From positions 2,592,001 to 2,656,000 of the forward strand of contig CBDFIJ010000004.1 in assembly GCA_965248055.1 (NCBI GenBank): DNA of 64,000 nt. Direction: 5' to 3'. The notes under the pieces are model-generated. The model was not told the origin of the DNA. It was given only the letters and a program-made list of their open reading frames with translations, and did no database searches. Of the stretch, positions 22,391-41,431 are shown piece after piece. The position numbers and the translations under genes are program-made. Each line of letters opens with the position of its first letter. Position 1 is the stretch's first letter. This DNA is from Candidatus Multivoradales bacterium. Lineage in GTDB: Bacteria > Acidobacteriota > Thermoanaerobaculia > Multivoradales > JAHEKO01.

Positions 22391-22409
22391 TCACTGCCCT
22401 CTGGAGGAA

Positions 22410-23887: not shown

Positions 23888-23889
23888 GA

Positions 23890-25212
23890 ATGGCTGACCT
23901 AAGCACCGATTTTGCCGGGATCCGCTCGCCTAACCCTTTCTGGGTTGCCTCTGGACCACCTTCCAACACCGCTTATCAGGCGCATCGGGCGTTTGAAGCC
24001 GGCTGGGGAGGGGTGGTCTGGAAGACCATCGGCGAGCCGATCGTCAATGTTTCGTCGCGCTATTCAGCGCTCAACCTAGGGCCGGAGCGGATGGCGGGCT
24101 TTAACAATATTGAACTGATCTCTGACCGTAGTATTGAGACCAATTTTCGCGAGATCCGCGAAGTGAAAGACCGTTGGCCCAACCACGCGGTGATCGCCTC
24201 GTTGATGACCGACACTCAGCAGAACTGGCGCGACATCATGAAGATGTCGGTGGACTCTGGCGCCGATGGGGTGGAGTTGAACTTTGGTTGCCCGCACGGC
24301 ATGTGTGAACGCGGCATGGGCTCTGCGGTGGGGCAGAACCCGGACGTCATCGAGACCATTGTCGGTTGGGTGATGGAGGTGGCCGAGATTCCGGTGATTG
24401 TCAAGTTGACTCCCAATATCACCGACATCCGGCGATCCGCGCGGGCTGCGGCCAATGCGGGCGCGGATGCGATCTCGATGATCAACACCGTGCAGAGCAT
24501 TACCCAGGTCAACCTCGATACCTTTGTACCCGAGCCTTTCGTAGACGGGAAAAGTACCCACGGAGGCTATTGCGGCCCGGCGGTCAAGCCGATTGCCTTG
24601 AACATGGTGCAGCGTTGCGCGGACGATCCTGATGTCGACATTCCGATCTCGGGGATCGGCGGAATTGCAACTTGGCGCGACGGAGCCGAGTTTCTCGCCT
24701 TGGGTGCCAGCAGTCTGCAAGTGTGCACCGCGATCATGCACCACGGTTTCCGTATCGTTGGCGACATGATTGACGGTTTGACGGAGTATTTGGACTCCAA
24801 GGGCTTTGCCAGCATCGACGACCTGGTCGGTCGAGCGACCGCCAACGTCACTCCGTGGGAGACCTTGAATCTCAGTTACCACCACGTTGCTCAGATCGAC
24901 TACGACAAATGCATTGGCTGCAATGTTTGTTATATCGCTTGTGAGGACGGCGCACACCAGTGCATCGACCTGGTCGATCCCGAAGGCGACGGACTGGAAC
25001 TGGGATTGGGTCCAGGGCGAGTGCCGTTTAAGCCGGTACCCCAAGTGCGGGAAGACGACTGTGTTGGTTGCAATTTGTGCTCTCTGGTGTGTGCGGTCGA
25101 TGATTGCATCACCATGACGCAGGTCGACAACGGACGTGACCCCCTGACATGGAAGAGCTACCAGGAACAACTAGAACGAGGCGAGATGGAGCCAATGCCG
25201 GCCCATCCTTAA
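23890..25212 (+). CDS. preA: Dihydropyrimidine dehydrogenase catalytic subunit
   Basis: NPFWVASGPP, NNIELISDR, LNFGCPHGMCERGMG, KLTPN, two C-terminal ferredoxin motifs. Confidence 0.96.
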   Translation: MADLSTDFAGIRSPNPFWVASGPPSNTAYQAHRAFEAGWGGVVWKTIGEPIVNVSSRYSALNLGPERMAGFNNIELISDRSIETNFREIREVKDRWPNHAVIASLMTDTQQNWRDIMKMSVDSGADGVELNFGCPHGMCERGMGSAVGQNPDVIETIVGWVMEVAEIPVIVKLTPNITDIRRSARAAANAGADAISMINTVQSITQVNLDTFVPEPFVDGKSTHGGYCGPAVKPIALNMVQRCADDPDVDIPISGIGGIATWRDGAEFLALGASSLQVCTAIMHHGFRIVGDMIDGLTEYLDSKGFASIDDLVGRATANVTPWETLNLSYHHVAQIDYDKCIGCNVCYIACEDGAHQCIDLVDPEGDGLELGLGPGRVPFKPVPQVREDDCVGCNLCSLVCAVDDCITMTQVDNGRDPLTWKSYQEQLERGEMEPMPAHP

Positions 25213-25223
25213 GGAAAGCATTC

Positions 25224-26720
25224 ATGACTCAACCGACGCAAATTCCTTGTCCGATTTTGATCGACAACCAATGGCTGACCCCTGATGTTGCTGGGTCTCC
25301 GGTACACAATCCATCCACCGGTGAGGTAATCGCCCAGACGCCCTTGTGCGGCCAAGATGAAGTCGATGCGGCGGTGGAGGCCGCGCAGCGTGCCCTTCCC
25401 GGGTGGATGGAGACTCCACCGATTGAACGGGCTCGGGTGTTGTTTCGCTACAAGATGCTGCTCGAAGACCATTTTGAAGAGTTGGCACAAATGGTCACCA
25501 TGGAGCACGGCAAGACGCTCACCGAAGCTCGGGGCGACGTGCGGCGTGGCATCGAAGTGGTGGAGTACGCCTGTGGCGCTCCCGAACTGCTCAAAGGGGA
25601 GAGCTTGGAGAACATCGCCACCGGTATTGATTGCATCACCGTGCGTCAGCCGGTAGGAGTTTGTGTCGGTATCTGCCCTTACAACTTCCCAGCCTTGGTG
25701 CCGATGTGGATGTATCCGTTGGCGATCGCCTGCGGCAACACCTTTGTTTTCAAGCCCAGTGAGAAAGTGCCGTTGACCGGGAATCGTCTGATCGAGTTAT
25801 TGATCGAGGCTGGACTGCCCTCTGGGGTGATGAACATCGTTCACGGCGGTCGCGAATGCGTCGATGCGCTACTACGGCACCCCACAGTGCGGGCGATTTC
25901 GTTTGTCGGCTCTTCCGCGGTGGCCAAGTACATCTACGAAACCGGGACCCAACACGGCAAGCGGGTCCAGGCGGCTGGCGGAGCCAAGAACTTTGTCTTT
26001 GTGCTGCCCGACGCGGACATTCCCAAGGCAGTCGAGGGGATGATTGATGGCGCCTTTGGCTGCGCCGGTCAGCGCTGCATGGCTGCCTCCACCGCGGTGG
26101 TGGTCGGCGATGTCGCCGAGCCGTTCTTAGGTCCACTGGCTGAAGAAGCGGCCAAGCTCACGGTCGGAGCCACGGATAGGGATCCCAGCGTCACGTTGGG
26201 GGCGGTGATCACCCGTGAGCATCGCGATCGGATTCATGGACTGATCGAGATCGGGGCAAAGGAGGGAGCAGAGATCCGAGTTGACGGTCGCGAAGCGGCG
26301 GTCGCCGAACATCCCGGCGGGTTCTACCTGGGGGCGACGATTCTGGATCACGTGCGCGACGATATGCAGATTTGCCACGAAGAGACGTTCGGTCCGGTCT
26401 TGAACGTCATGCGCTTTGACGATCTCGATTCGGCCATCGATTCGGCCAACAAACAGGCTTACGGCAATGGGGCGTGTGTCTACACCTCTTCCGGTCGCTC
26501 AGCCCGGGAATTCGCCCATCGGGTCAAGGCGGGCATGGTCGGCATCAACGTTGGGGTTCCAGCGCCTTTGGCCTACTTTCCGTTCAGTGGCTGGGACTAC
26601 TCGTTCTTTGGTGACCTGCATGTGCAGGGCAAAGAGGGAGTGCAGTTCTACACCCGGACCAAGGTCATCACCTCCCGTTGGCACACCCCCGGCGAAGGTG
26701 AGGTTTGGCACACAGACTAA
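25224..26720 (+). CDS. mmsA: CoA-acylating (methyl)malonate-semialdehyde dehydrogenase
   Basis: KPSEKVP, ISFVGS, KRVQAAGGAKN, AFGCAGQRCMA, GMVGINVGVPAP. Confidence 0.93.
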   Translation: MTQPTQIPCPILIDNQWLTPDVAGSPVHNPSTGEVIAQTPLCGQDEVDAAVEAAQRALPGWMETPPIERARVLFRYKMLLEDHFEELAQMVTMEHGKTLTEARGDVRRGIEVVEYACGAPELLKGESLENIATGIDCITVRQPVGVCVGICPYNFPALVPMWMYPLAIACGNTFVFKPSEKVPLTGNRLIELLIEAGLPSGVMNIVHGGRECVDALLRHPTVRAISFVGSSAVAKYIYETGTQHGKRVQAAGGAKNFVFVLPDADIPKAVEGMIDGAFGCAGQRCMAASTAVVVGDVAEPFLGPLAEEAAKLTVGATDRDPSVTLGAVITREHRDRIHGLIEIGAKEGAEIRVDGREAAVAEHPGGFYLGATILDHVRDDMQICHEETFGPVLNVMRFDDLDSAIDSANKQAYGNGACVYTSSGRSAREFAHRVKAGMVGINVGVPAPLAYFPFSGWDYSFFGDLHVQGKEGVQFYTRTKVITSRWHTPGEGEVWHTD

Positions 26721-26756
26721 ATAGTCCAATTGGCAGACTACGAAGGATTCAACACC

Positions 26757-28139
26757 ATGGGCTTACTGATCAAGAACGGCGAGATCGTCACCGCCAGCGA
26801 GCGTTATCACGCGGATATCTATTGCGAGGGCGAGACCATCACTCGCATCGGTCAGGACTTGGAATCCGGACCTGATGCCGAAGTGGTCGACGCCAGTGGC
26901 AAGTACGTCTTCCCAGGGTTCATCGATCCGCACACTCACATCTACCTACCGTTCATGGGTACCTTCGCCAAGGACACCTATGAAACCGCCAGCAAGGCCG
27001 CGTTGATCGGCGGCACCACCTGCTTTGTGGACTTCTGCATTCCCAGCCGCAGTGAGCAACCGCGGGATGCCTTTGAGACTTGGGAGAGCCAGAGCAGCGG
27101 CAATGCGGCTTGCGACTTTACCTACCACATGGCGGTCACCCGTTTCGACGACAGCGCCGCGGAGCAATTGCGCCACATCGTCACCCAAGAAGGGATTTCC
27201 TCGTTCAAGGTGTTCCTGGCCTACAAGGGCGCTTTCGGGGTGCCCGATGAAGAGCTGTACCACACCCTCAAACTAGCCAAAGAGCTGGGGGTGATCACCA
27301 CCGCGCACTGCGAGAACGAAGACATCGTTTTGGAGCGACAGAAAGAATTGATCGCCGCGGGCAAGACCGGCCCCGAGTGGCACTACCATTCGCGCCCGCC
27401 GTTAGTTGAAGCTGAGGGCACCCAGCATCTAATGACCTTTGCTGAGTTGCACGACGCTCACGTCTACGTGGTGCATTTAAGCTGTCGCGAAGCCCTCGAA
27501 GCCGCGATGCGCGCCAAGTCGCGTGGAGTCAACGTCTGGATCGAGACCTTGATCCAGTACCTACTGCTCGACATGACCTACGCCGAGCGCCCCGATTTTG
27601 AAGGCGCCAAGTACGTCATGTCCCCGCCTCTGCGCGATAAGGCCAACCAAGACCTACTGTGGAACGGATTGCGTCAGCGCTTCATCAGCACCCTAGCGAC
27701 CGACCACGCGCCGTTTGATTTCGCCGCCCAGAAAACCATGGGCAAGGACGATTTCACCCTGATCCCCAACGGCATCCCAGCGCTGGAGGATCGGGTCAAC
27801 CTGCTCTACACCCACGGAGTCGCCACCGGGCGCCTCGACCTTCAGACCTTCGTCGATTGCGCCTCCACCCAGGCGGCTAAGATCTTTGGCCTCTATCCGC
27901 AAAAGGGCACCATCCAGCCCGGAGCTGACGCCGATCTGGTGATCTATGACCCGGCCTACCGCGGCAAGATCTCAGCTACTACTCACACCATCAACACCGA
28001 CTACAGTGCCTTTGAAGGCTGGCAGATCGAAGGCCGACCGAGCGTGGTTACCGTGCGCGGCGAGGTCGCGGTGCGCGATGGTGAGTTTGTCGGAACCGTA
28101 GGTCGGGGACAGAGGGTTCGTCGAGAACCGAATCATTGA
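26757..28139 (+). CDS. hydA: Dihydropyrimidinase
   Basis: PGFIDPHTH, SSFKVFLAYKG, AHCEN, YVMSPPLR, TDHAPF, IPNGIP. Confidence 0.96.
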   Translation: MGLLIKNGEIVTASERYHADIYCEGETITRIGQDLESGPDAEVVDASGKYVFPGFIDPHTHIYLPFMGTFAKDTYETASKAALIGGTTCFVDFCIPSRSEQPRDAFETWESQSSGNAACDFTYHMAVTRFDDSAAEQLRHIVTQEGISSFKVFLAYKGAFGVPDEELYHTLKLAKELGVITTAHCENEDIVLERQKELIAAGKTGPEWHYHSRPPLVEAEGTQHLMTFAELHDAHVYVVHLSCREALEAAMRAKSRGVNVWIETLIQYLLLDMTYAERPDFEGAKYVMSPPLRDKANQDLLWNGLRQRFISTLATDHAPFDFAAQKTMGKDDFTLIPNGIPALEDRVNLLYTHGVATGRLDLQTFVDCASTQAAKIFGLYPQKGTIQPGADADLVIYDPAYRGKISATTHTINTDYSAFEGWQIEGRPSVVTVRGEVAVRDGEFVGTVGRGQRVRREPNH

Positions 28140-28629
28140 TGGTACCCACCGTCTGAAGACGGTGAGCGGCTGTCAGATTCCTGAGGACGGCGCTCAGCCC
28201 AGCCCTGCTGTGCGCCGGGTCTGTGAAGGTCTATCAGCGTTTTACCATGTGCTTGCGGGGACGTTTCAGGATTGGTTGGATGCGGGGTTCTCCCCTCCCC
28301 AAAGCACAGGCCATGAAAGGAGAGCCGGCCCCTGCGGCGGCAGCCCCCCACCCATCCAAGACGACGGGTTAGGGACCTGCGATCAGAAACGAAGATAGGA
28401 AAACCCAAGGGCATTCGGCTAGGTGCCCGGCCCAGCCCGAGCAAGTCAATGGGCGGTAGACGCTGCGCCGAGAGATTCCGAGCTGCCAGGAAATCTCCGC
28501 TCTTGAGGTCCCGGCTTCGGCCATGGTCTTGATCGATTCCACCTTCTTGGGAGTTAGAACGAATCGCGCGCCCCTCTTGCGACCGCCCCAGGTTTTTCCA
28601 GCAGCCTTGGCTTTGACAATTCCAGCTCG

Positions 28630-29040
28630 GGTACGCTAACGCGCGGTCTCCTTACGCTTCTGGTTCTCTTGCTTGCGGGTTGTATCAGCCATTTATTCAA
28701 CGGCGGAGCAGGGACACCTGAACAGTGTGTGGTCGACGAAGCGCTGCCCGGCTTGTGGAAGAGTGGAACCAACCTGACCGGGCTTGGTCTGCCGCGGTAG
28801 AACTTAAATTGAACTGCGATTGTACTTATGTAACCTTTCTTCGTGCGGTAAACTTCACGATTCACATCAAAGAATCAGGCGCCTATTACTTCAGCGACGG
28901 GCATCTGGTGTTTGCTCGAGCAAACGGCGAAGAAAGCCGCTGACTCTACGGGCTTGATGGTGGCGAAACTGTGGATCCGCATGTCCGAGAAGGAAGACCC
29001 GATGAGGCTGCAATAGAAGAAGAAGTTTTCGAGTGATTGA
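28630..29040 (+). pseudogene. Degraded lipoprotein gene
   Basis: LLTLLVLLLAGC lipobox followed by protein-like text broken by frameshifts and stops. Confidence 0.3.
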
Positions 29041-29189
29041 GTGGTTCCGCGCTGGATGCCGGGCGGGGCATGAAATGAGACCGAAAAGGAAGAAACCAAC
29101 AAACAAAAGGCCACAACTGCCCCCTTTTTGAAGAAGGTTCCAGTGCCGCATCGACCTTGTGGGGAAACCTGGTCGGCCCGATGTGCTTT

Positions 29190-29723
29190 CTAGTATGGAG
29201 GGAAGCCCCGTGTTTTCTTAAGTCTACCCCCAAGAAGGTCGATAACTAGCTGTTCCGGAAACATACTCGCTCCTTGTAACCTGCAAGGGATTCCAGCAAG
29301 TCCACGGCTGATCTTGCGCAGATCTTTTTCCGGTTGCCACTCGCGGAAGTGCTGGATCATGAAAGCGAAGTCGGTCATTGATCCGAGTGTTCGTCGGCCC
29401 ACGGTTTTCGCATAGACGGCGAGCTTCATCTCGGTCATCTCTTTTTTCACAGCGAGTTCGTCAACCCCGATATCAATCAGCAAATGCTCGAGTTCGTGAC
29501 AAAGCTGTGAACGGATGTTCTTGCTTAGGCTCTTGGCGGGGCAAACCACCGACAGAAGCGTTGTCGAACTGGTGTAGAGGATGAGTTGTTCTCGACCGCA
29601 ACGGATCAGGTTTACGTACCAGTCACCGAGAACGGTAGTGCCAGTGCCCTCATCGATGAGCCTGTCATTTGTATTCTTGCCAAGGCGCTTGCGGGTCTTT
29701 AGGGTGAGGCGAAGAATGACCAT
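29190..29723 (-). CDS. DUF6933-like protein
   Basis: LGDWYVNL, TTLLSVV, RRTLGSMTDF motifs. Confidence 0.65.
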   Translation of the reverse strand: MVILRLTLKTRKRLGKNTNDRLIDEGTGTTVLGDWYVNLIRCGREQLILYTSSTTLLSVVCPAKSLSKNIRSQLCHELEHLLIDIGVDELAVKKEMTEMKLAVYAKTVGRRTLGSMTDFAFMIQHFREWQPEKDLRKISRGLAGIPCRLQGASMFPEQLVIDLLGGRLKKTRGFPPY

Positions 29724-30019
29724 CAGCTAGAGGAGTCGTCGACGGATATTTCGGCTAGGTGCCTTTGTAAGGTGGCGGTAGTCATTTCAGGAAGGTTCGT
29801 GGCGGCTTCGGCCAGAATGCGAGTTCCAGAACGGTAGAGCAGTTCCGTTTCGAGATCGAGTTCGTGCTGCTCCAGTCGAGCATTGGCGAGAATCGTGATG
29901 GCCTCCTTGAGAAAATCCAGAACCGTGGCAGCGTGGCGCTCCTGTAGCCCTCGTAGCACCATGGCATGGCGCTCGAGTGAGCCGGCTACCTCTAGTAGAC
30001 GAAGATCGCGTTTCGACAT
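29723..30019 (-). CDS. Hypothetical helical protein
   Basis: GGAG RBS before ATG 30019; stop overlaps the next start. Confidence 0.5.
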   Translation of the reverse strand: MSKRDLRLLEVAGSLERHAMVLRGLQERHAATVLDFLKEAITILANARLEQHELDLETELLYRSGTRILAEAATNLPEMTTATLQRHLAEISVDDSSS

Positions 30020-30224
30020 AAGTATTCTCCATCTTATCGAACAACAGGGGCCACCCCTGTGAGAAGCGACAAGGATTACTTTTCCTCCGAGGACTGTCCG
30101 ATCCGAAGGGTGGCTCATACTGGACACTATCCGGAGCCCCTCGAAGTCAAATGATTTGCGGGTCCCGGATGGGACTTCCAAGTAAACCGATGATTTCAGC
30201 CATACTTGGATGATGGAGCCTCAA

Positions 30225-30854
30225 GAGGATAGCCGTCTACGTTCGCGTATCAACCACGCGCCAGGACCTGAGGGGCCAAGAGCCTGAGCTCAAATCTTGG
30301 GTAGAGCAGAACGCGGGCAACGTGCCCGTGCGTTGGTACCGCGACAAGCACACCGGCCGATCTATGGACAGACCAGCCCTCAACAAGCTGGAGCGATCCA
30401 TTGAGGCGGAAAGGTGGGTGCGGTAGCCGTGTGGCGCAACGACCACATGGGAAGGCGCTCGCGGCAGATGCTCACCTTTCTTGAGCGTCTTGACGATCTG
30501 AACGTGGATTACTACTGACTACGCGATGGCGGTCTATTCGCGGACAGGACAGCTTCGGCTCGGATGTTTCGGCACATGCTAATAGGCATGGCTGAGTACG
30601 AGAGCGAACTCATCTCTGAGCGCACCCGGGCGGCGCTTGCCGCCAAGCGTGCGAGGGGAGAGAAGTGGGGCGGTCGGAAGAAGGGCGACAGGTCTAAGCT
30701 TGACGACGTGATGCTCAAGATCATTGAGGCAATGCTCGCCGCCAAAATTCCGAAGACGCAGATTGCTAAGAGGTTAGGGATTTCGAGGGGTTCGGTCTAT
30801 GAAGCGATAAAACTGTTTTCAGTTTGCCAAAGCGGCCCGATTCGCAGAGGGTGA
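30225..30854 (+). pseudogene. Resolvase/invertase-type serine recombinase pseudogene
   Basis: RIAVYVRVST...DRPAL, frameshift near 30410, VWRNDHMGR, in-frame TGA near 30515, AEYESELISERT, C-terminal HTH. Confidence 0.85.
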
Positions 30855-30866
30855 CCAAGGTCTTTT

Positions 30867-31415
30867 GTGACGAGACTCCATCGTTTCGTGGTCATCTCAG
30901 GAGTGCCAGGGTGTGGAAAGACGACAATAGGGCATGCGCTTGCCGATCACCTCGCCATACCTCACCTGGATAAGGACGCGATCCTGGAGTCTCTTTTTGA
31001 TGGAGTTGAGTGTTCAGACGAAGCGACCCGCCATCAACTCAGTAGGGAGGCTGATCGAGAATTTGAGACCATTGCGCAGAGCTATTCCTCGGCAATTCTG
31101 GACTCCTTCTGGCGGCATCCCTCAGCCGAAGTGAGTTCAGGTACTCCGTCCGCCTGGCTTCCCGCTCCCGAGATTTACTCGGTGGAGGTCTACTGCAGGT
31201 GTGCTCCCGAGATTTCTGCGAGCCGTTTCCTAGAGCGGGGGCGCCATAATGGACACCTCGATTTCAGATGGAATCAAGTTTTCCTAGTCGTGCAGTTGCG
31301 AGATCTCGCGCGAACTTTCCCCCTCGGAGTTGGCTCATTTCAGATTGAAGTGGACACGACGGACGACGTCGACACAATACTGCTTGCGGAACAGGTACGA
31401 ATTCCATTGGGTTAA
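30867..31415 (+). CDS. P-loop kinase (AAA_33-like)
   Basis: ISGVPGCGKTT, HLDKDAILESL. Confidence 0.8.
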   Translation: MTRLHRFVVISGVPGCGKTTIGHALADHLAIPHLDKDAILESLFDGVECSDEATRHQLSREADREFETIAQSYSSAILDSFWRHPSAEVSSGTPSAWLPAPEIYSVEVYCRCAPEISASRFLERGRHNGHLDFRWNQVFLVVQLRDLARTFPLGVGSFQIEVDTTDDVDTILLAEQVRIPLG

Positions 31416-31502
31416 AGATGGAGGGTGTCGCTCTCGCCGAACCAAGGTTCTAGTGGCGCACAATTGAGCAAGCCATCAGAACAGCTAGAAACGGCTCGCG
31501 GT

Positions 31503-31735
31503 TGGTGATCTACGACCCCGACTACCGCGGCAAGATCTCTGCTGATACCCATCCAATCGCCACTGACTACAGCGCCTTTGAAGGCTGGTAGATCGAAGGC
31601 CGGCCGAGCGTGGTGACGGTGCGGGGGGAGGTCGCGGTGCGGGACGGCGAGTTTGTGGGAACCGTGGGTCGGGGGCAGAGGGTTCGTCGAGAACCGAATC
31701 ATTGATGGTACCCATTTTCTTGAAGATGGTGAACG
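31503..31735 (+). pseudogene. Diverged duplicate of the hydA 3' end (matches 27937-28165)
   Basis: Direct alignment by eye; mostly third-position changes; CAG>TAG at 31589-31591; identical GAGGGTTCGTCGAGAACCGAATCATTGATGGTACCCA. Confidence 0.92.
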
Positions 31736-31802
31736 CTTATCGGACTTCTTGAGACCGCGCTCCCGCCCGTCCAAGAAGACAGAAAGGTCTCCACAAACAT
31801 AC

Positions 31803-31916
31803 AAGGGGAGGGGTTTATCCCTTCCCGCCATTGGTGGGTTCCCCAATCGTAATCTCGGCGGGGGTAGCTCAATACCTCGTCATCCCGGCGGTGGGGAGGG
31901 AGGGGGGCCGGGATCT
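31803..31916. repeat. REP-like palindromes, same families as at 18.3-18.5 kb
   Basis: AAGGGGAGGGGTTTATCCCTTCCCGC (31803-31828) and GTCATCCCGGCGGTGGG...GGGCCGGGATCT (31879-31916). Confidence 0.65.
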
Positions 31917-32204
31917 TCGACCTGAATGAGAAAGATCCCCGACCTCCAAACCGCCACCCCAAGCCCCCTTTTCCTTCGCGTTGGGGAGGCTCTGCGGGAT
32001 GGCCGTGTTGGGCTAGCCAGTGACCACTGACCAGCGCTTCCAGTGAAAGCGTTTCTTCTTGGCCAGTTTTTCCAGTTTGCGGCGCAGGTCAGTGATCTCT
32101 TGCTGGTAGTCGCGGTCGCGCGCATTAACCCCACCAGCTAGTTCGTAGGACTGCCGTATGAAGCACACGGGCAGGGGCAACCAACCCTCGGCTCACCGCC
32201 TACT

Positions 32205-33026
32205 TCATTTCGACGATGACTCAGTCGTTTTCGTCTCCCGATCGCTCGACAAAAATTCGAATCCTGCTGGGTAGGTTTGCATCACCGCTTGAATCGAAAC
32301 CATGCAGGATTTTGTATAGAAGTCGGTGAAGGTGGAGCGAGCGTAGACCAGTTCTTCGTAGAAGTCGGAGAACGAGGATCTGCCAGAAAGCATCATCTGC
32401 ACGAATTCTCCCTTTTCTGTAAGGGGCAGGACACCTTCGAAGGCTCCTAACGTACGTTCGGTCAAGTGGAGCAACATTTTCAGGTCTTCCCGTTGTGCTT
32501 CCAGAACCGATTCAACACTGTCAAAACGACTCGCGGCCATAGGGTCCGTATCGGGATCTAATACTTGCTTCCCAAGGTCGGAGTAGCGTGCACCGTCGCG
32601 TTGTGAAATTCGCTGGAACGGTTGCGCTTCTTGGTAGAGTTTCCGAGTCGTCTCGTCAAAGACCTTGAGAGTCGGCTCGCTTTTGAGCGTTTTCAGCAAC
32701 TCGTCGTAGAGGTTTAAGGCACGCTTCATGGCAGGCACGGATTCACTCAGATGGGAGAATGCGAGTCGAAACGAACCAGCGTCGGCGCCACCGTGGAACT
32801 CAGCTATGTTGCCACGTTCCATAAATCGGTTGCCTTCGACCTGACGACCCACAATGTCATCGAACAATGTGTCGGTCAGCAGGAAGCTTTTCTCTAACCA
32901 GTCGATCGTGACCAAACTGTCACGATATGGAACATGTCAGGCGGGGGCGTGAGCTACCGCCGGAACGCTCAAGAGAGTCGTTCCAACCAGGCATACGATT
33001 GCGATTCTCCTAATTTGGCGCATCAT
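32205..33026 (-). CDS. Secreted helical protein with in-frame TGA at codon 30; candidate selenoprotein (273 aa)
   Basis: AAGGAG RBS, ATG overlapping the upstream stop, signal peptide ending AVA, TGA at 32939-32937 in frame with the 236-aa ORF, hairpin immediately downstream. Confidence 0.7.
32905..32926 (-). promoter_or_regulatory. Candidate bacterial SECIS element
   Basis: ATCGTGAC-AGTTTG-GTCACGAT: perfect 8-bp stem, with 18 nt between the UGA and a loop that has G at position 2 followed by U. Confidence 0.62.
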
Positions 33027-34528
33027 CGAACTCCTTTGCCGCCAGCCCCATTTTCTCGACTATCCAGGGCGGAGGTTGATTCAACTACAAGTGACGCCAA
33101 AAATTGTAACACAGCGCCCTGGTCGGCGATAGAGAGCGCGTCAAACGCGTTGCGTGCGGCACGAGCCTCGCCGGAGTGGTGCAGAATCGCCTCGCGCAGA
33201 GTGGTCAGGTTGCCACGATGCCCGTATGGACTGCTGCTACCCACGTGCCACAGAGGAGTTGTGAGGAACATATCGGTCGCGACGTTGTCCTGCCGCAGCC
33301 TTTCGTTGCAAAAGAACGGATCCTGGTCGTCGCAGATCCGGTGGCGCTTAAGGTCGGTGAAAGCTCGAACTACGGCGCCGTCTTCACCCAGCGGTTCTAG
33401 GCGATTGCCGAACCCCTCATAGCGTAGGTCAAAGTCGAATGTTGAGGCGACATGTTCAGGACGAAGATTCCCGGGTCGGTTGTGGGGATTGGGCTCACTA
33501 AAGATGGCCGATTCAAGGTGGAGTTCCGGGATATGGCATTTCGCGCAACCAGTTCTTGAAAACGTATGCTCACCAGCAGCCAGCGCAGCGGACTCTGCTT
33601 CGGTTGCAGGCTTTCGAGTGGGAATGGACAAAGCGGCCTGAAATAGAGTGATCGCTGTGATGTCTCCGATCGTCAACTCTTCGGAGACACCGTCTTCGTC
33701 AAAGTCCTGCTGACCGGTGCGCGGCCAGCCGAAGCGCTCGATGGCTTGCATTCCATGGTGGTGGTTCATGGCGTTGATGGTGAATTCTCGTAGGGAAATG
33801 ACCACCCCCTTGAAACTGAATGGTTTGATGACGAGATCGGGATCAATACCTTCAATATGCCGAGCGTCAACGGTACCGTCGGGACGACCAATTAAGCGAC
33901 CGAAAGAGACACCCTTTGCTGTCAGTGGTACCTCTATGTCATGACCGGCGCCAGCGGCCGCCTTCAGTACCTGCTTCTTGACCGCCAGGAGGTCGCGGGT
34001 CATTTCCCTCGCCAGCAACTCGATGGCCCCGGATCCCATTAAACCCGGCGTGTTTCGTTCATTGGATTCTTGGCTGGACACGGACGTTGTTACCGGGTCG
34101 CGAAACTGCGCTAGGACGAATGCGTTGGCAACGGAATCACCACTGCCACCCGGGGACGGCTGGTTGTGACAGCCAGCGCAAGAATTGCTGTCCGGACCGG
34201 ATGTTCTGATCACGGCCGGTGCTCCCGGGTTACGTTTGGTGGGCTTGCTATCGCCGGTGGCCATAGGCCTACCAAAGCCATCTGCGACCGTAAACCGGGC
34301 GACGAACACGTTGTGCCCATGATGCACTAGGTCGGACAACGAGAACGCGCCGCGATCAATATCCTCCTGCTCGATGTGATTGTGGAGGCCGCGTTCCACG
34401 TATTGTTCGACTTCTGCTTTTGCGGCAGGAAATGTCGAGATAGCTATCACCATTGCTGCTCCGACAATTCGTAGCAACAGTAACCAACTGTTCTCTTGAG
34501 CCGATAACGGCGTTCGCGTTCCTAACAT
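33023..34528 (-). CDS. Di-haem oxidoreductase (DHOR / putative peroxidase family), exported
   Basis: Signal-like N-terminus, CAGCH and CAKCH, RNTPGLMGSGAIE, FTDLKRH, TTPLWHVG...YGHRG...LREAILHHSGEA. Confidence 0.85.
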   Translation of the reverse strand: MLGTRTPLSAQENSWLLLLRIVGAAMVIAISTFPAAKAEVEQYVERGLHNHIEQEDIDRGAFSLSDLVHHGHNVFVARFTVADGFGRPMATGDSKPTKRNPGAPAVIRTSGPDSNSCAGCHNQPSPGGSGDSVANAFVLAQFRDPVTTSVSSQESNERNTPGLMGSGAIELLAREMTRDLLAVKKQVLKAAAGAGHDIEVPLTAKGVSFGRLIGRPDGTVDARHIEGIDPDLVIKPFSFKGVVISLREFTINAMNHHHGMQAIERFGWPRTGQQDFDEDGVSEELTIGDITAITLFQAALSIPTRKPATEAESAALAAGEHTFSRTGCAKCHIPELHLESAIFSEPNPHNRPGNLRPEHVASTFDFDLRYEGFGNRLEPLGEDGAVVRAFTDLKRHRICDDQDPFFCNERLRQDNVATDMFLTTPLWHVGSSSPYGHRGNLTTLREAILHHSGEARAARNAFDALSIADQGAVLQFLASLVVESTSALDSRENGAGGKGVR

Positions 34529-34640
34529 CAGATCAGAAACAAGTTTGTCATACTGAGGTTCCTCAGCATCGAGACGGATAAACGACCCTACTTGGCAGGG
34601 TGGAGTTTGTGCTGACTGTAAGCCTTAGGTCGTGGGAGAG

Positions 34641-36503
34641 CTACGTGCTCGGGGCTGGCGAGGACCGGGCCACCGGGTAGAGCAGATACTCGCTGTCGTA
34701 GTAGGGCGTCTGGCGATAGAACCACATCAGACGTGCCGCGGGGTCGGCGGCGAAGTCGGGGTCTGCGGTGAGCTTGGCCTCGAAGGCTTGGCGTAGGTCG
34801 TCGTCGGTCCTGAGCATCTCAGTGGCAGTGGCTTCCAGCACGTCATCGTCGTAGTACTCGGTACGGGTGAGGATCTCCAAGAAAAACCCCCATTGAAAGA
34901 AGGAATCTGGAGCCTGGGGTTCTAGGAGCAAGATCGCTAGGTCGCCCAGCGGCTGGTCGGTAGCGACCTTGAATGAACCTGGGCCGAAGGTCCGGGTGTG
35001 AACCTCGACCTCAGGTGTTCCCGGGTCGACCCGAGCGTGTCCCTCAAAGGGATTGCTGGCTCCCACCACTGATGGACTGTCGGCGTCGGCGAGTCGTGCT
35101 TGGGGGAGTCGAAGCATCGCAACTCCGACGGTGGTTGGTTGCTCGATCGCTTCTACTTCAATCCCATGGTGCTGCAGTCGCCTGGCGATGTCCGCCCAAG
35201 CGGCGGGGATGTAATAAGCGTCAGGTCGCGTGACAGACAACGCCGGTTGATCCATGTTGATCCGTTGGACACGCTGGGTTTCCGGTTCCCCCAACCAATC
35301 GATAATTTCGCCTCCGGTGATTGCAGACAATCGAACCTGAGACTTGATGGCGGCGAACTCCAACTCTTCGCCAGAGCCTGTGCCGGAGGTGAACGCCAAC
35401 GGCACGGTGTCGTTCCTAATGGCTCGATCCTCGGTGGTGGCCTGCTGCAGGCCAGTTGCCTCGGCGGCCAACACGCGCAGTACACCGCGCAGAAACACAT
35501 AAGTGCCGAGGACTCTTTGATCGTAGGGTTTGAGCGAGTGGTTCTCGACCAGGATCGTCGCCAAATGGCGAGCGTCTCCGTAGCCATTGGAAAACCGTAG
35601 ACCAGCAGTCCAACCCCAGAATCCGTCGTTGAGATCTTTTTGGTTGACCGAGAGCACCAGCGGTCCGGGAATGTGCCCTGCATGATCGAGTTCACTGTCG
35701 AGAAACGGGCGCAGCTTGCCGTTCAACCAAGAACGAATCCCGGGTGACCAACCGCCGACGTTCCAGCCGTAGGTAATGTCGTACTGATAGTCCTCGCCGT
35801 TGGTGACGTGAACGTCGATGTAAAGGTCGGGCTGATAGTCATTGATCGCTTGCACCATGGCGCGAATCTCGGGCGTATCGAGTTTGGCGTAGTCGCGGTT
35901 GAGATTGAGGTTGCGACGGTTGCTGCGCCATCCCATCTCCTCCGGTCCGCGTTGATTGAAACGATTGGTGGCGGAAAATCGCTCGTGTCCGTCGACCGAG
36001 AGGATCGGAATAAACAGAAAATTGACTTGGTCCAGCAGCCGCTCGGTGTCCTTACCACCCACGGTCAGGTCGCGCAGCAGCATCAGGCCGGCGTCTTTAC
36101 CGTCGATCTCTCCAGCGTGAATACCAGCTTGTACCAGCACCGTGGGGCGGCCGTTGGCCCGGACAGCCTCAGGAGTGGAAGCGCCACCGGCTGCGATCAG
36201 CATCCAGATGTCGCGTTGCTGGTCGCTCTTGCCTAGCGAGACCATCGACAGATTGGGCGCGGCGTCGGTTAAGCGCTGGGCGAACGCTACGGTTTCGGCA
36301 TAGTGCGGCGTGGTGGTGAGACCAGAGGCTTCGGCCGGGGTGATCCAGGGATCCGTGTCTGTGACGATCAGGCTTCGAGTTTCGCCTGACCATTCTGGGG
36401 CTGGCGGCAGGACTGAGCGGATACTGGATGACGGGTCGCCGGATGCGCTTGCTGACCCCAGGACGCCAAGAAAAACGGCTGCGAGCAGTCCCGCAGCCGT
36501 CAA
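34641..36503 (-). CDS. M14 zinc carboxypeptidase, secreted (start approximate)
   Basis: GIHAGEIDG, NLNLNRD, IDVHVTNG; signal peptide ending ASA; the longer ORF-track start overlaps another gene. Confidence 0.88.
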   Translation of the reverse strand: MTAAGLLAAVFLGVLGSASASGDPSSSIRSVLPPAPEWSGETRSLIVTDTDPWITPAEASGLTTTPHYAETVAFAQRLTDAAPNLSMVSLGKSDQQRDIWMLIAAGGASTPEAVRANGRPTVLVQAGIHAGEIDGKDAGLMLLRDLTVGGKDTERLLDQVNFLFIPILSVDGHERFSATNRFNQRGPEEMGWRSNRRNLNLNRDYAKLDTPEIRAMVQAINDYQPDLYIDVHVTNGEDYQYDITYGWNVGGWSPGIRSWLNGKLRPFLDSELDHAGHIPGPLVLSVNQKDLNDGFWGWTAGLRFSNGYGDARHLATILVENHSLKPYDQRVLGTYVFLRGVLRVLAAEATGLQQATTEDRAIRNDTVPLAFTSGTGSGEELEFAAIKSQVRLSAITGGEIIDWLGEPETQRVQRINMDQPALSVTRPDAYYIPAAWADIARRLQHHGIEVEAIEQPTTVGVAMLRLPQARLADADSPSVVGASNPFEGHARVDPGTPEVEVHTRTFGPGSFKVATDQPLGDLAILLLEPQAPDSFFQWGFFLEILTRTEYYDDDVLEATATEMLRTDDDLRQAFEAKLTADPDFAADPAARLMWFYRQTPYYDSEYLLYPVARSSPAPST

Positions 36504-36523
36504 GAATTGCGATCGGATGAAAC

Positions 36524-36727
36524 CTAGACGAAACGAGACCAGAAGAAACCTAGCACCCCGAGTCCGACCATCGCCGCGCCGACCATGGCAAAGGTCAAGA
36601 AGGCGGCGGGATGAATCCATCCTAGGGTGATCATCTGTACCAGGATGCCGACCGCGACCAAGATTGCCGAGGTGCGAACAATTTCCCTGCCTTTGGGCGA
36701 CAAAATAGCTACCGGTCGTTCGCTCAT
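36524..36727 (-). CDS. Small two-TM membrane protein coupled to NapC/NirT cytochrome
   Basis: ATGA overlap with the upstream gene; two hydrophobic helices. Confidence 0.65.
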   Translation of the reverse strand: MSERPVAILSPKGREIVRTSAILVAVGILVQMITLGWIHPAAFLTFAMVGAAMVGLGVLGFFWSRFV

Positions 36728-37338
36728 TGGGCACTCTCCAACGATCCTGCGGTCCAAAGGTCAAAGTCTTCGATCTCATCCACATCATGGATCAGATCAT
36801 GACAGTCCAGGCAACTTGTTTCACCTGACGCCAGCGCATCCGCTTCGCCGATGTGGTCTTCGCCTTCCTCAAACGATCGCGCCCCCTGATGGCAGTACAA
36901 GCATTCGCGATTGCTGTAGGGGTCGTAGAGTTCGATTTTTTCCGGTGGGGTCCCGAGGTAGTGCATCCAAACGTGCATGAGCCCCTTCATCTTGGCTTGC
37001 AGGTCACCGTACATCGCGTAGGAGGTGTGGCAGGTGTAGCAGGCATGGTCCTGGTCGACCAAGTGATTTTGGTAGTGGACAGCGGGCAGGTAGTCGCTGT
37101 CGTCGATCAGCAGGCTCTTTCCGTAGTCGCCCATCTCATGGCACGACAGACAGAAGTGGGTCGATTTGGACTGCTCCAAGTGGGCTCCGGTGTTGAGGGC
37201 GGTGACCACGATGGGCAGCGCGAACAAGGCGAAAAACCCCAGGATGGCGCCGCGTCGACCTACCGAGAAATTGGGCTTAATCGCCAGGCCCAGTGCGGCG
37301 AGACCGGCGACAGCTCCGAGGAGAAGCAGAAGCTTCAT
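36724..37338 (-). CDS. NapC/NirT-family membrane tetrahaem cytochrome c
   Basis: TM anchor; CLSCHEM, CYTCH, CLYCH, CLDCH. Confidence 0.9.
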   Translation of the reverse strand: MKLLLLLGAVAGLAALGLAIKPNFSVGRRGAILGFFALFALPIVVTALNTGAHLEQSKSTHFCLSCHEMGDYGKSLLIDDSDYLPAVHYQNHLVDQDHACYTCHTSYAMYGDLQAKMKGLMHVWMHYLGTPPEKIELYDPYSNRECLYCHQGARSFEEGEDHIGEADALASGETSCLDCHDLIHDVDEIEDFDLWTAGSLESAQ

Positions 37339-37346
37339 CGAGCGAC

Positions 37347-37730
37347 CTAGCTTCCGTCCTCTGGGGCGGCTTCGAGCGAGCCGACCCAGGCCAGGATCTT
37401 GGCTAGATCCTCCTCGCTACCCTCCCAGGTTTTCTTGTGTTCGGTGCCATCTTCCTTGACCTCTTCCTTGCGTAGAAACTTGGTCAAGGTGGTCACATCG
37501 TCAGTGGTAAAGCCACCGAGATCGGTACTCTTCATTTTCTCCGAGGTTGCTTCCAAGTCGGCGCTGGCGACGCTGTGGCAGCGCACGCATTTGTAGGTTT
37601 CAACGAATAGTTCCTGCGCGGCTTCGGCGTCCACTTCGCCCGCGGTGATCGCTGGGGCGATTGCCATGAGCAGCGCGGCAATAGCTCCCGCAAGGGCCAA
37701 GGTCAGGTGAATACACTGGGTTGGTTTCAT
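37347..37730 (-). CDS. Monohaem cytochrome c, exported
   Basis: AGGAG RBS, signal peptide, one CVRCH, distal His candidate in EHKK. Confidence 0.85.
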   Translation of the reverse strand: MKPTQCIHLTLALAGAIAALLMAIAPAITAGEVDAEAAQELFVETYKCVRCHSVASADLEATSEKMKSTDLGGFTTDDVTTLTKFLRKEEVKEDGTEHKKTWEGSEEDLAKILAWVGSLEAAPEDGS

Positions 37731-38022
37731 CGTGTGCTCCTGGTCCATTACCGCGACGTGGCAGGAATCTCTCCGTGGCACCAGTGTTTTATTTCTGCCA
37801 ACAACATGAGTTTACCCGATATAGGTTGTTGTTGTTGCTGGATGATCGGTGGCTTAAGCCGCGAAGAGGAGCCGTGGCGGATGGAAAAGGGCTAGTTGGG
37901 TGCTTAATTAGGCGAATCACATGATAGAGTCGGCTTTAGGTTGGGCTGAATGCCAACGGAGTGAAAACTCCGCCGGTGATGTATCCACAACCCCTGTTTT
38001 GTTGAGAAATGGGAGGTTCAAC

Positions 38023-38949
38023 ATGCGCTGGAAAATCTTGCTGGTTGCCGCAGTCGTCACGGTCGTAACACCGTGGGTCGCGAGGTCTGCCGAAACCGAG
38101 AATCCGGATCCGCAGACTGCGATGGAAGTCTGCGGAGATTGTCACGAAGAGTATGTCCAGGCGGCCCACTTGGGTCCTCATTCGATCTTTGAGGGATCAA
38201 AATGGAGTCTGTCTGAGGCCGGTGTTGAAGCGAACGTAGGCTGCGAAGCTTGCCATGGAGACGCAACCCAGCATTTGGAAGACGAGGGCGGTGAGGGGAC
38301 CATGTTCACTTTTGCCGATGCTCTCCCCACCGAGGCAGCGTGCTTAACCTGTCACCGGGGTAGCCACCCGCGTTTTGTTGGTTCACCGCATTCGCAGGCA
38401 GGAATGTCGTGCACCAGTTGTCACTCAATTCACAGCGCCAACCCGGCGGGACCTCCTTTGCTGCAGGCAGTGGAAGTGGCAGCGCAGTTAGCCAATGTGG
38501 GCGGCAGTTCCGCCACCTGCTACGGATGCCATCAGGAAGCATTTGTCGAGTTTGAATTCAATGAGCGGCATCGTCTGCACGAAGGGACGTTGGAGTGCAC
38601 GTCGTGTCACAACCCCCACGCTCCAGCACCCCGGGCGATGTTGACCAGTACCGCCAAAGAACCTTGTGTTAGTTGCCATGCCGACAAAGAAGGCCCGTTC
38701 ATTTTTGAGCACGGTTCGGTGGTAGTGGAGGGCTGTACCGCCTGCCATTCACCACACGGGTCGCCCAATCGCCACATGCTGGCGAGTCAAGATGGTGGCG
38801 AGCTTTGTTTCAGTTGTCACGCTGCGGTGCCGCAGTTTCACGCTGGTTTCAATCCAGCGGCTCCGCCTAGATTTGATACCACGACCAACTGCGTCAACTG
38901 TCATTCCGCAATTCACGGATCGAACTTCGATCCTTATTTCTTGCAGTAG
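38023..38949 (+). CDS. DmsE/MtrA/MtoA-family decahaem cytochrome c
   Basis: GGAGG RBS, signal peptide, ten CxxCH motifs, GPFIFEH, C-terminal CVNCHSAIHGSN. Confidence 0.93.
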   Translation: MRWKILLVAAVVTVVTPWVARSAETENPDPQTAMEVCGDCHEEYVQAAHLGPHSIFEGSKWSLSEAGVEANVGCEACHGDATQHLEDEGGEGTMFTFADALPTEAACLTCHRGSHPRFVGSPHSQAGMSCTSCHSIHSANPAGPPLLQAVEVAAQLANVGGSSATCYGCHQEAFVEFEFNERHRLHEGTLECTSCHNPHAPAPRAMLTSTAKEPCVSCHADKEGPFIFEHGSVVVEGCTACHSPHGSPNRHMLASQDGGELCFSCHAAVPQFHAGFNPAAPPRFDTTTNCVNCHSAIHGSNFDPYFLQ

Positions 38950-38958
38950 GAGGGCACA

Positions 38959-40851
38959 ATGAAGCTATTGCAAGCAAGAAACTACGTTGGAATCGCTACC
39001 GTCCTGCTGCTAGCAGGAACATTGGTAGCTGATGAACCGAACTTAACTTCGTTCACCGGTGGGTTCTCCATTGGGGTGCGCAGTGTCGATATCAACGGCG
39101 CTGATAACAAGTACAAAGAGGACTTCAATCTGGATGATGGTCCACGGCTTTTCGACTTTCACTTCAATCTGGTGCCTTCTGGCGCTGATCGCAAGTACGC
39201 CGATCAGATTCGCCTAGAGGTGCAGAACCTGGGTGGGGATCCATTTGAAAACATTCATTTTGGGATTCGCAAATACGGCAAATACAACCTGTATTATAAC
39301 CGGACCAAGTCGGACTATTTCTACTCGGACACGTTATTGCCGCATGCTTTTTCAAGCCTGACTAATTCAAACGGCGGTGATTTCCACACCTTCGATTTCG
39401 AGCGGGTTCGTGACCACGCCAAGTTGAATATCGACCTCAGCCAAGAGGCACGGTTGACCTTTGGCATGGACCGTACGGTCAAGCGCGGTGAGTCCACCAC
39501 CACACTGGATATTTCCCGCGACGAGTTTGAATTGGACCGCCCGATTCACGAGTCGACCAACGCCTACTTTGGTTCTTTTCGTTACGCCTGGGACAAGGCC
39601 ACCTTGGTGGTTGAGGAGCGGGTACGCGACTACGAGAACTCTTACGACATCTTCCTTCCCGGAAAGTCGCTGGGAGAAAACCCAGAGGGCGCGACGGTCG
39701 ATTTCTTTTTCCTCGATCAGCCTTACGACTTATCCAGCAATACCCACATTGTGCGCTTAATGGCGCGTCCCAATGACAAATTTGAGGTTCGCGTCAGTGG
39801 TCTCTTGCAGAACACGGAGATGAATGCTTCTCCTGCCAGCCAAAGCTCTCAAGGGATTGCCTACAACGAAATACCATTTACCGAGCAGATCGACGGTGGT
39901 GGTTCGGTAGATCGTGACGCCGATCGTTTTGACGTCGAGGTGACCTACGCCGCCAGCGACCGAGTCGCGGTGGTGGCCGGCGTACGCCAGCAGACGGTCG
40001 ACCAAAACGGTGGATTCGATTGGGCTGGTGACATCAACCGTGGTGAATGGCACATCGACACTACCGGACTTCGTGCCGGGGTGGAGTTCTATGTCTCGTC
40101 GCAGTGGACGCTGCACGCGGGTTTGGCAAGTGAGAGCCGTGATGTCGACTCTGCGTTCTCGATTCTGAACCCCGAGACGCTCGCTCTTGAGGAGGACCAT
40201 TCCGATCAGCACACCACCGATCGAACCGGTGTTTACGCTGGCGCAGCGTGGAGACCATCTAAGGCGTTTCAGTTGACCGTCGACCTAGAAGAGAATTCCT
40301 TCGACGATCCCTTTACCCTGGCGACTCCCACCGACCGCTCACGCTATCGGGTCCGCGGTCGCTATCGCTTCAACGATGGTTGGACCGCGACCGGTGCATT
40401 CACCGTCAAAGACTACGAGAACAGTGACTCCGGCTGGGTGTCGGATACCAACATCTCATCCCTTCGTGTCAGTCGCACCGACAAGCGACTCTCGCTCTCA
40501 GTTGGTTACTCGGCAGTGGATGCTGAACGCAGCATCGATCAAACGGTCAGAGGTGGGTTTATCACCAACGTGTTCAACATCAACTACATGGCCGACTCCA
40601 GCTTCTTTGATGGTCGAGCACGTTTCAAAGCGAATGACCGGCTGACGGTTGGCGGTGACCTGCGGATGTACGAGAACGACGGGTCTTTTGGCCTCGAGCG
40701 GGACGACTTTCGAGGCTACGTTGAAGTCAGTGTGTTCAAGGACTACAGCTTGCAGATCGGTTATCGCATCGTTGACTACAACGAGACCGACTTCGATTTC
40801 GATGACTACGACGCCGACATGATTGACGTTGGTATTGGCTATAGCTGGTAA
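38959..40851 (+). CDS. MtrB/PioB-like outer-membrane beta-barrel
   Basis: Follows the decahaem gene; NKYKEDFNL, amphipathic strands, C-terminal GIGYSW. Confidence 0.82.
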   Translation: MKLLQARNYVGIATVLLLAGTLVADEPNLTSFTGGFSIGVRSVDINGADNKYKEDFNLDDGPRLFDFHFNLVPSGADRKYADQIRLEVQNLGGDPFENIHFGIRKYGKYNLYYNRTKSDYFYSDTLLPHAFSSLTNSNGGDFHTFDFERVRDHAKLNIDLSQEARLTFGMDRTVKRGESTTTLDISRDEFELDRPIHESTNAYFGSFRYAWDKATLVVEERVRDYENSYDIFLPGKSLGENPEGATVDFFFLDQPYDLSSNTHIVRLMARPNDKFEVRVSGLLQNTEMNASPASQSSQGIAYNEIPFTEQIDGGGSVDRDADRFDVEVTYAASDRVAVVAGVRQQTVDQNGGFDWAGDINRGEWHIDTTGLRAGVEFYVSSQWTLHAGLASESRDVDSAFSILNPETLALEEDHSDQHTTDRTGVYAGAAWRPSKAFQLTVDLEENSFDDPFTLATPTDRSRYRVRGRYRFNDGWTATGAFTVKDYENSDSGWVSDTNISSLRVSRTDKRLSLSVGYSAVDAERSIDQTVRGGFITNVFNINYMADSSFFDGRARFKANDRLTVGGDLRMYENDGSFGLERDDFRGYVEVSVFKDYSLQIGYRIVDYNETDFDFDDYDADMIDVGIGYSW

Positions 40852-40889
40852 GGGTTTTCTATCTCGGATTATCCGAGATTCACCTCGCG

Positions 40890-40923
40890 GGCCCGGTTGC
40901 TTCGGTGACCGGGCCTTTCTTTT
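40890..40923 (+). terminator. Rho-independent terminator
   Basis: GGCCCGGTTGC-TTCG-GTGACCGGGCC followed by TTTCTTTT. Confidence 0.85.
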
Positions 40924-41129
40924 GTACCTGCCGTCGCAGAGGACGGTGAACGCTATTTGACCTTTGAGCGGAGGTGGTCACCTCAACCCCGCTGTGTGCC
41001 GGAGGAATGCGGCCTGCCAAGAGCTTGCCATGCGCTGGCGGGGATGCCTCTGGGACTGGCAGGTACCGGGCTGCCCCCGCCCTCCCGAGACCGCTGTATT
41101 CATTGATCGAGTCGAGACTGTCACTCACT

Positions 41130-41366: not shown

Positions 41367-41431
41367 ACGTGTAAAAACTGTCGTAATACACGTGCGGAGG
41401 GGGGTGTCGTAATACATGTGTGGAGTGGGGA

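Follow-up and report, generated by a model that had tools for sequence, protein, structure and literature searches.

A candidate secreted selenoprotein encoded beside a di-haem cytochrome gene in Candidatus Multivoradales bacterium

The locus described here raises the question of whether a TGA inside a reading frame ends a short leader or is read as selenocysteine (Sec). It lies in a 64,000-nucleotide stretch of DNA from Candidatus Multivoradales bacterium (GenBank assembly GCA_965248055.1, contig CBDFIJ010000004.1, positions 2,592,001 to 2,656,000 of the forward strand), which was analyzed as a whole and is henceforth referred to as the window. The gene in question is encoded on the minus strand at positions 32205-33026, and its in-frame TGA is very probably a Sec codon in the gene of a small, predicted secreted protein. 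An original prediction, made from the letters of the DNA, had proposed a new selenoprotein. That reading is supported by the conservation of the TGA, the pairing of Sec with Cys among homologues, the Sec machinery of the genome and the geometry of a hairpin behind the TGA. We put the probability of the whole explanation, in which a single coupled gene has its UGA30 decoded as Sec by way of a Sec insertion sequence (SECIS) hairpin and its product is exported, at roughly 0.8.

The reading frame and the residue at its in-frame TGA

Direct reading of the DNA, the list of open reading frames (ORFs) and a translation with TGA read as U all give a single frame that is open save for the TGA at 32939-32937. 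The called ORF starts at a TTG (32915), and from there the frame runs upstream through the TGA to an ATG at 33026, just after which comes a second ATG at 33023. The features of the gene, all on the minus strand, are as follows.

32205..33026, minus strand: candidate selenoprotein gene, complete, 273 codons plus a TGA stop, with Sec predicted at codon 30
33031..33036, minus strand: Shine-Dalgarno sequence AAGGAG, 4 nucleotides (nt) before the ATG at 33026 and 7 nt before the ATG at 33023 (direct reading)
32952..33026, minus strand: predicted signal peptide, residues 1-25, with a basic n-region, a hydrophobic core and A-V-A
32934..32951, minus strand: motif H-A-P-A-U-H at the predicted mature N-terminus, identical in the window and in the homologous loci L021 and L022
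32937..32939, minus strand: UGA predicted to be read as Sec, residue 30; TGA in all three close loci and Cys in 22 relatives
32304..32306, minus strand: codon of Cys241, in the C-terminal motif Y-x-x-x-C-M-x-S/T-I, invariant in an eight-sequence alignment

The ATG at 33026 overlaps the TGA stop (33025-33023) of an upstream gene of 501 amino acids, and the peptide reads MMRQIRRIAIVCLVGTTLLSVPAVA-HAPA-[TGA]-HVPYRDSLVTIDW, continuing behind the TGA as H-V-P-Y-R-D-S-L-V-T-I-D-W. This layout of ATG, AAGGAG, overlapping stop and HAPA-[TGA] agrees base for base with the one first proposed. By direct reading, no ribosome-binding site precedes the called TTG, which falls within the loop of the hairpin described below. 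A scan of 31600-35000 for promoters and terminators gave nothing above shuffle expectation. We placed the signal peptidase cleavage site by eye, using the -3/-1 (A-x-A) rule, and under that rule Sec would be about the fifth residue of the predicted mature chain.

The TGA is not a product of the assembly, so far as contigs show. We used four public runs from one sample, probably the source of the genome, and each was assembled separately. The resulting contigs reproduce the TGA and have no differences to window positions 32700-33100 (k-mer depth 17-61).

Of 922 candidates in a protein search, seven reached E ≤ 0.001. Apart from the call in the window itself, these are six gene calls of 173-223 amino acids, all truncated at the N-terminus and with differing start points. 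DNA for close homologues was available from two loci, L021 in a Methylomirabilis metagenome-assembled genome (MAG) from groundwater and L022 on a metagenome contig. At both, the frame stays open upstream beyond a TGA as far as an ATG that has a Shine-Dalgarno site (GGAGG-type); a signal peptide is encoded there, and the motif reads A-H-A-P-A-[TGA]-H-G-V-W. All three close loci with DNA thus have the in-frame TGA within AHAPA-U-H, and the candidate protein can be aligned from end to end with the Cys-form homologues and with what L021 and L022 encode when the TGA is read through. The signal-peptide architecture recurs in L021, L022, the Cys-form locus L024 and the full-length family members with divergent sequence; the signal peptides of L021 and L022 are unrelated in sequence to that of the window.

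Cys forms were read in DNA at two loci: L024, in a genome of the window's phylum (G298), with ...L-S-A-H-N-V-W-C-H-C, and L041, in genome G748, with ...A-M-A-Q-A-L-S-C-Q-A-V-F. We then searched 1.84 billion representatives with a family profile and obtained 77 proteins at E ≤ 0.001. The family alignment has 83 rows; P0001-P0003 and P0006 had been removed because they duplicate calls of the window and the loci, and P0067 because its match is C-terminal only and it seems to be unrelated. Among the 28 rows that reach the Sec column (the window, the locus read-throughs and library representatives), 22 have Cys, three have TGA and three have another residue (M, A or P). Put by distance, TGA stands in 3/3 close loci and Cys in 22 of the 25 more distant sequences, as foreseen for a genuine Sec codon in the original prediction. 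On the aligned sequences, this pattern of TGA and Cys is the classical Sec/Cys signature. Another 54 of the 83 rows stop short of the column, being fragments or downstream gene calls, and P0085 is unaligned there. Some of the 54 may hide further TGA forms. Scans of genome and metagenome contigs (one locus each) and whole-genome searches yielded no further TGA forms.

The hairpin, the Sec machinery and competing readings

Behind the TGA stands the following element, for which we number the U of UGA as nt 1.

32905..32926, minus strand: SECIS-like hairpin, a perfect 8-bp stem with loop AGUUUG, -10.8 kcal/mol for nt 12-38

The stem-loop, ATCGTGAC-AGTTTG-GTCACGAT at 32926-32905, starts 10 nt past the TGA, just where it had been reported. 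In bacterial SECIS elements G23 and U24 are important, the spacing rule is 16-37 nt and a G(U) stands at the start of the apical loop. Both the window and L021 have the loop G-U at nt 23-24; in L022 it falls at nt 24-25. All three TGA loci have the hairpin (8 bp in the window, 6 bp in L021, 5+1 bp in L022), with local folding energies for nt 12-38 of -9.6 kcal/mol in L021 and -6.8 kcal/mol in L022, and the gap-free alignment of the three has standard pairs in 21 of 24 pair cells. At pair 16:33 the window has C-G and the other two loci have G-C; a first-position C to G that replaces Arg with Gly or Asp is balanced there by a silent G to C in a Thr codon. In L022, the register of the hairpin is one base off by way of a change of Ser-Leu to Lys-Phe, and the loop still shows AGUU. 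At the Cys locus L024, folding found no hairpin at the corresponding place.

We assessed how often such a juxtaposition arises in this genome. Perfect 8-bp hairpins with loops of 3-8 nt number 953 in 3.41 Mb (0.28 per kb), with 13 in the window, and a looser SECIS-like hairpin follows 670 of 105,463 TGA trinucleotides genome-wide (0.64%). A TGA with a hairpin behind it is therefore uncommon but alone not decisive.

The window's genome (3.41 Mb, 97.7% complete) encodes selA, selB, selC and selD, each above its curated cut-off. The tRNA-Sec gene scores 75.5 bits, has the anticodon TCA and lies at contig positions 2576758-2576852. selB scores 340.9 bits (cut-off 242), selA 450.2 bits (cut-off 268) and selD 347.6 bits (cut-off 125), and selD carries its own in-frame TGA. 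The original prediction had also placed a tRNA-Sec fragment inside the window, which was not borne out: ARAGORN found no tRNAs and Rfam no match at gathering score within the window, none of the 15 genome matches to RF01852 at E ≤ 0.001 falls inside it, and the true gene lies 15.1 kb before the window start. The genome of L021 also has tRNA-Sec, and Sec machinery was found in both TGA-bearing genomes checked.

Our own scan for a TGA with a SECIS-like hairpin and open frames gave 61 open-frame candidates in the window's genome, most of them false by eye; the scan is no substitute for bSECISearch or deep-Sep. It recovers selD and points to at least four further likely selenoprotein genes, namely two CMD/AhpD-like, one DUF3179 and one UxxC. 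Here we list selD and three of these four; the loop of the fourth, the UxxC gene L036 described below, is also of the GGUC type.

C4:294306-294917: L034, CMD/AhpD-like, GGUC-type SECIS loop
C4:1438223-1438897: L035, CMD/AhpD-like, GGUC-type SECIS loop
C4:3146479-3147654: L037, DUF3179 with a signal-peptide-like N-terminus, in-frame TGA and GGUC-type loop
C4:1264721-1265956: selD, GGUC-type SECIS loop

The GGUC-type loops of these four genes begin 21-24 nt from the U of UGA. The loop GU lies at nt 22-24 in four likely selenoprotein genes of the genome and at nt 25-26 in the DUF3179 gene, and the CMD/AhpD-like genes (C-x-x-U) have the motifs C-H-Y-U and C-Y-P-U. To judge from these genes, the organism clearly decodes UGA as Sec in several of them. 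At L036 (C4:1903572-1904276, plus strand), the reading frame contains a TGA, in ...LLVGPT-U-GVC..., the N-terminus resembles a signal peptide, and a 7-bp hairpin with loop GGGUC lies 20 nt into the SECIS window. The product matches no Pfam family and may be another unnamed secreted U-x-x-C selenoprotein.

Several observations weigh against the Sec reading of UGA30 or its SECIS hairpin. The TGA-bearing loci are three only, and L021 and L022 are not independent of each other, since their DNA is 72% identical. Three of 28 sequences lack Cys or Sec at the Sec column and four of 20 lack Cys241, so neither residue is universal. The covariation that had been expected of a real hairpin comes to a single compensatory pair in three sequences, which 178 of 500 shuffles equal and which is not significant. 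Folding z-scores over 48 nt (-1.65, -0.47 and -0.12) are within the shuffle range, and the validated fdhF element is equally unremarkable by this measure (-0.67). The conserved peptide D-x-x-V-T partly fixes the core of the stem, GAC...GUC AC. Of the two Cys loci, L041 forms an interrupted hairpin of -8.9 kcal/mol in the same place, lacking the loop GU. The window's loop AGUUUG is also unlike the GGUC-type loops of the genome's five other likely selenoprotein genes. The BSepDB paper reports, in the text available to us, a canonical SECIS in 87.4% of its bacterial selenoprotein entries, so a non-canonical loop is not disqualifying.

We weighed three other explanations of the TGA. It could be a real stop that closes a leader ORF of 29 codons, followed by a cytoplasmic protein of 236 amino acids started at TTG 32915 or at another downstream site. 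Such a product is what the ORF caller and the database records of all six non-self homologues give, and TGA is the normal stop of both the candidate gene and the upstream gene. However, the Cys-form relatives hold signal peptide, motif and body in one unbroken ORF, and the signal-peptide architecture and AHAPA-TGA-H are kept in frame across ~55%-identical orthologues whereas the remaining leader diverges. The TTG lies within the hairpin loop and has no ribosome-binding site, and the database starts of the homologues differ from one another as expected of artifacts, all of which makes a real stop very improbable.

If the UGA were read by a Trp, Cys or Arg tRNA (near-cognate or suppressor), or only at a low level, in place of decoding by SelB as Sec, this would accommodate both the unproven covariation and a loop that is not of the GGUC type found in the genome's other candidates. 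Such readthrough has little probability all the same, given Cys at the aligned position in 22 of 28 sequences, the full Sec machinery in both TGA-bearing genomes checked, a hairpin geometry equal to that of fdhF and a genome that otherwise uses TGA as stop. Finally, the TGA could be a sequencing or assembly error or the gene a decaying pseudogene, a suspicion fed by its place on a strain-specific islet with a truncated resolvase. This we regard as extremely improbable: contigs of four runs reproduce the TGA, it stands at the same codon in two assemblies from unrelated records, and the other 243 codons are intact and conserved.

The proposed di-haem partner and the possible role of Sec30

The gene that precedes the candidate selenoprotein gene is the following.

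33023..34528, minus strand: gene of a secreted di-haem c-type cytochrome of the DHOR/DUF1111 type, upstream of the candidate gene with an ATGA overlap and two CxxCH motifs

Its product matches PF06537 at 43.6 bits (cut-off 22) over profile positions 425-499 only, the C-terminal part, and the motifs C117xxCH and C328xxCH are invariant in four orthologues. Also invariant among the orthologues are two Cys residues, C399 and C407, in R-H-x-x-C-D-x(6)-C-N-E, and the long stretch G-R-P-x-A-T-G-D-S-K-P. Among solved structures, the DHOR profile gave a haem-motif match only. DHOR/DUF1111 di-haem enzymes are widespread, and we know of no defined reaction for them.

A DHOR gene adjoins the candidate-family gene in 5/5 loci; it precedes the family gene at the three Sec loci and L041 and follows it at L024. 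The loci have no third gene in common: by tblastn, what lies downstream at L021 and L022 has no counterpart in the window genome or the other loci, and the conserved neighborhood is the two-gene pair only. The genes at L021:4708-5364 and L022:3737-4387 overlap the selenoprotein gene at its 3' end and have no relationship to each other and no Pfam family.

We propose the following mechanism. The candidate gene would be co-transcribed and, through the ATGA overlap, translationally coupled with the upstream DHOR gene. SelB and tRNA-Sec would decode the UGA at codon 30 as Sec, with the signal given by a short SECIS hairpin inside the coding sequence whose loop G-U stands 23-24 nt from the UGA. The product would be exported and cleaved behind A-V-A, leaving a mature periplasmic protein of ~248 residues that begins H-A-P-A-U-H. 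This protein may be the working partner of the di-haem enzyme, with the N-terminal Sec or Cys as its presumed reactive center.

Sec usually marks a catalytic or metal-binding center, and a Sec/Cys protein as an obligate neighbor therefore points to the site of the chemistry of the two-protein module. Tentatively, Sec30 may be redox-active; it might form a selenenylsulfide with Cys241 in a cycle and pass electrons to and from the haems. Position 241 is Cys in 16 of the 20 full-length sequences with both columns readable, and among the four exceptions one has no N-terminal Cys either; these counts would fit a possible Sec30-Cys241 redox pair without proving it. A role for Sec as a ligand in an N-terminal His-x3-Sec-His metal site is more doubtful. 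The motif varies among relatives as H-N-V-W-C-H, H-x-x-A-C-H and Q-x-x-x-C-Q/R. His stands at -4 in 19 of 28 sequences and at +1 in 18, and both occur together in 18; a second subgroup has Gln at -4 (7/28) and Gln, Arg or Leu at +1. The two His residues are kept in the three members with Met, Ala or Pro in place of Cys. For one branch of the family, these patterns are a hint of a metal site, N-terminal His-x3-(Sec/Cys/Met)-His, and not of a simple thiol. It is equally doubtful that the role of Sec is something else.

Two family members, P0030 and P0058, both from metagenomes, have a C-terminal cupredoxin domain (plastocyanin/azurin-like), and P0030 is named "plastocyanin" in one source. Cupredoxin is the sole recurrent Pfam domain in a scan of 63 members; P0064 has a match to Big_1 below gathering score. 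Small cupredoxins donate electrons to bacterial di-haem peroxidases, and the two cupredoxin-fused members argue for an electron-transfer setting. A more specific and unlikely arrangement, suggested by the motif, is a histidine-brace-like metal center made of the free amino terminus, two His and the selenolate, most plausibly with copper, or Sec as ligand or redox relay to the DHOR haem. If true, this would be a type of periplasmic seleno-metalloprotein not seen before, acting together with a di-haem enzyme, spread by horizontal transfer and present in a lineage related to methane-oxidizing bacteria. The family gives a handle on the DHOR/DUF1111 enzymes, and its Cys forms would make for easy expression in ordinary hosts.

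Novelty, distribution and comparison with known systems

The window protein matches no Pfam and no NCBIfam family at E ≤ 0.1, the Cys form L024 has no NCBIfam match, and the family profile found among solved structures only coiled-coil-type noise (best E 0.018). In the available part of the 2026 review PMC13188914, the 119-family Table 1 has no fitting row and the NCBIfam selenoprotein models cited there do not match the candidate protein. The available texts of the literature consulted, including PMC3143127, PMC12013277, PMC13326102 and 10.1101/072470, hold no description of the family; the supplements of these papers and of the review may bear on novelty. Within these sources, the first impression that the protein belongs to no known selenoprotein family stood. 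A study by Deng et al., cited in the review's available text, covers over 44,000 groundwater MAGs and reports "potentially novel candidate selenoproteins"; since L021 is from a groundwater MAG, the gene may already stand in the list of that study. Taken together, the gene very probably represents a new selenoprotein family, decoded by the standard, known bacterial mechanism.

UGA is read as a stop by gene callers, and selenoprotein genes are systematically mis-annotated as a result. Here, all six database homologues have lost the signal peptide and the most interesting residue by truncation. Recognition of the family would add one to the ~119 prokaryotic selenoprotein families of PMC13188914, and it would be among the few that are exported, have no thioredoxin-type or other Pfam domain and carry Sec at the mature N-terminus.

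The family has a sparse distribution. Whole-genome searches detected it in 2 of 401 genomes from the phylum of the window, 2 of 301 from the class to which G298 belongs and 3 of 251 from the phylum of L021, where one is a C-terminal remnant (L031) and one a weak match. L031 (G454, C6:156195-156362) covers the last ~56 profile positions in an ORF of 86 amino acids, has no DHOR-like neighbor in the ORF list and is apparently a gene remnant. The nearest homologue, at 57% identity, is in another phylum, and the same-genus genome G314 has no family member. By aligning window positions 22001-42000 to G314 we found the following insertion.

28138..34662: islet of 6,525 bp, against ~1,054 bp in G314, with flanks that align at 72-80% identity

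The islet has a G+C content of 53-57%, compared with 58-61% in the flanks, and holds the DHOR-selenoprotein pair, a truncated resolvase, an AAA-kinase-like gene and a DUF6933 gene. The resolvase (30564-30854) retains only the last 33 residues of the catalytic domain and the helix-turn-helix; the AAA-kinase-like gene lies at 30867-31415 and the DUF6933 gene at 29190-29723. Because the closest relative is in another phylum and the pair lies in a ~6.5-kb insertion, the module, and with it the islet 28138-34662, was probably acquired horizontally.

We compared the candidate with known systems. Imelysin-like/EfeO partners of DUF1111 in iron uptake are likewise secreted, have ~250 residues and are encoded beside DHOR/DUF1111, and EfeO carries a cupredoxin domain as do the two members noted above. 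Operons of EfeO-like and DUF1111 genes are described in the available parts of PMC3143127 and 10.1101/072470. We regard such a partner as the nearest functional analogy. Homology to imelysin/EfeO (Peptidase_M75) was considered and rejected at the level of sequence and profile: PF09375 is not among the 25 most-matched families of the 63 members, and hhalign gave a probability of 0.4% against a shallow EfeO profile of 12 sequences at ≥ 86% identity. A search of 61 genomes from the class of the window found no PF09375, and no GxHxxE motif is visible in the window protein.

Pairs of a MauG-like or other di-haem enzyme with a periplasmic copper protein (MbnH-MbnP, MopE/CorA) resemble the module in combining a secreted di-haem enzyme with a secreted partner that carries a metal motif. 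Unlike in those pairs, the matches of the DHOR protein to the NCBIfam models are far below cut-off (MauG-like, E 4.6e-4 and 19 bits against a cut-off of 340; MbnH, E 0.046) and the partner has no NCBIfam model; the likeness is one of analogy only.

The decoding signal is best compared with that of E. coli fdhF, where an in-frame UGA is likewise followed by a hairpin within the ORF and Cys-containing homologues exist. When fetched and folded, fdhF shares with the window an apical loop that starts 18 nt past the UGA, with G-U at nt 23-24. At L021 and L022, the sequence starts UGACACGG as fdhF does, because both encode U-H-G. Unlike fdhF, the window has a short perfect helix and no long bulged lower stem, the fdhF loop is GGUC whereas that of the candidate is AGUUUG (AGUU in L022), and the candidate protein is unrelated to molybdopterin enzymes.

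The DUF3179 and CMD/AhpD-like selenoproteins of the same genome would use the same machinery, and the DUF3179 protein shares the signal-peptide-like N-terminus. Both are known selenoprotein families in the available part of the PMC13188914 table. In contrast to these named families with GGUC-type loops, the candidate belongs to no named family, and its predicted Sec stands not in CxxU or UxxC but in H-x3-U-H, at the very beginning of the mature chain.

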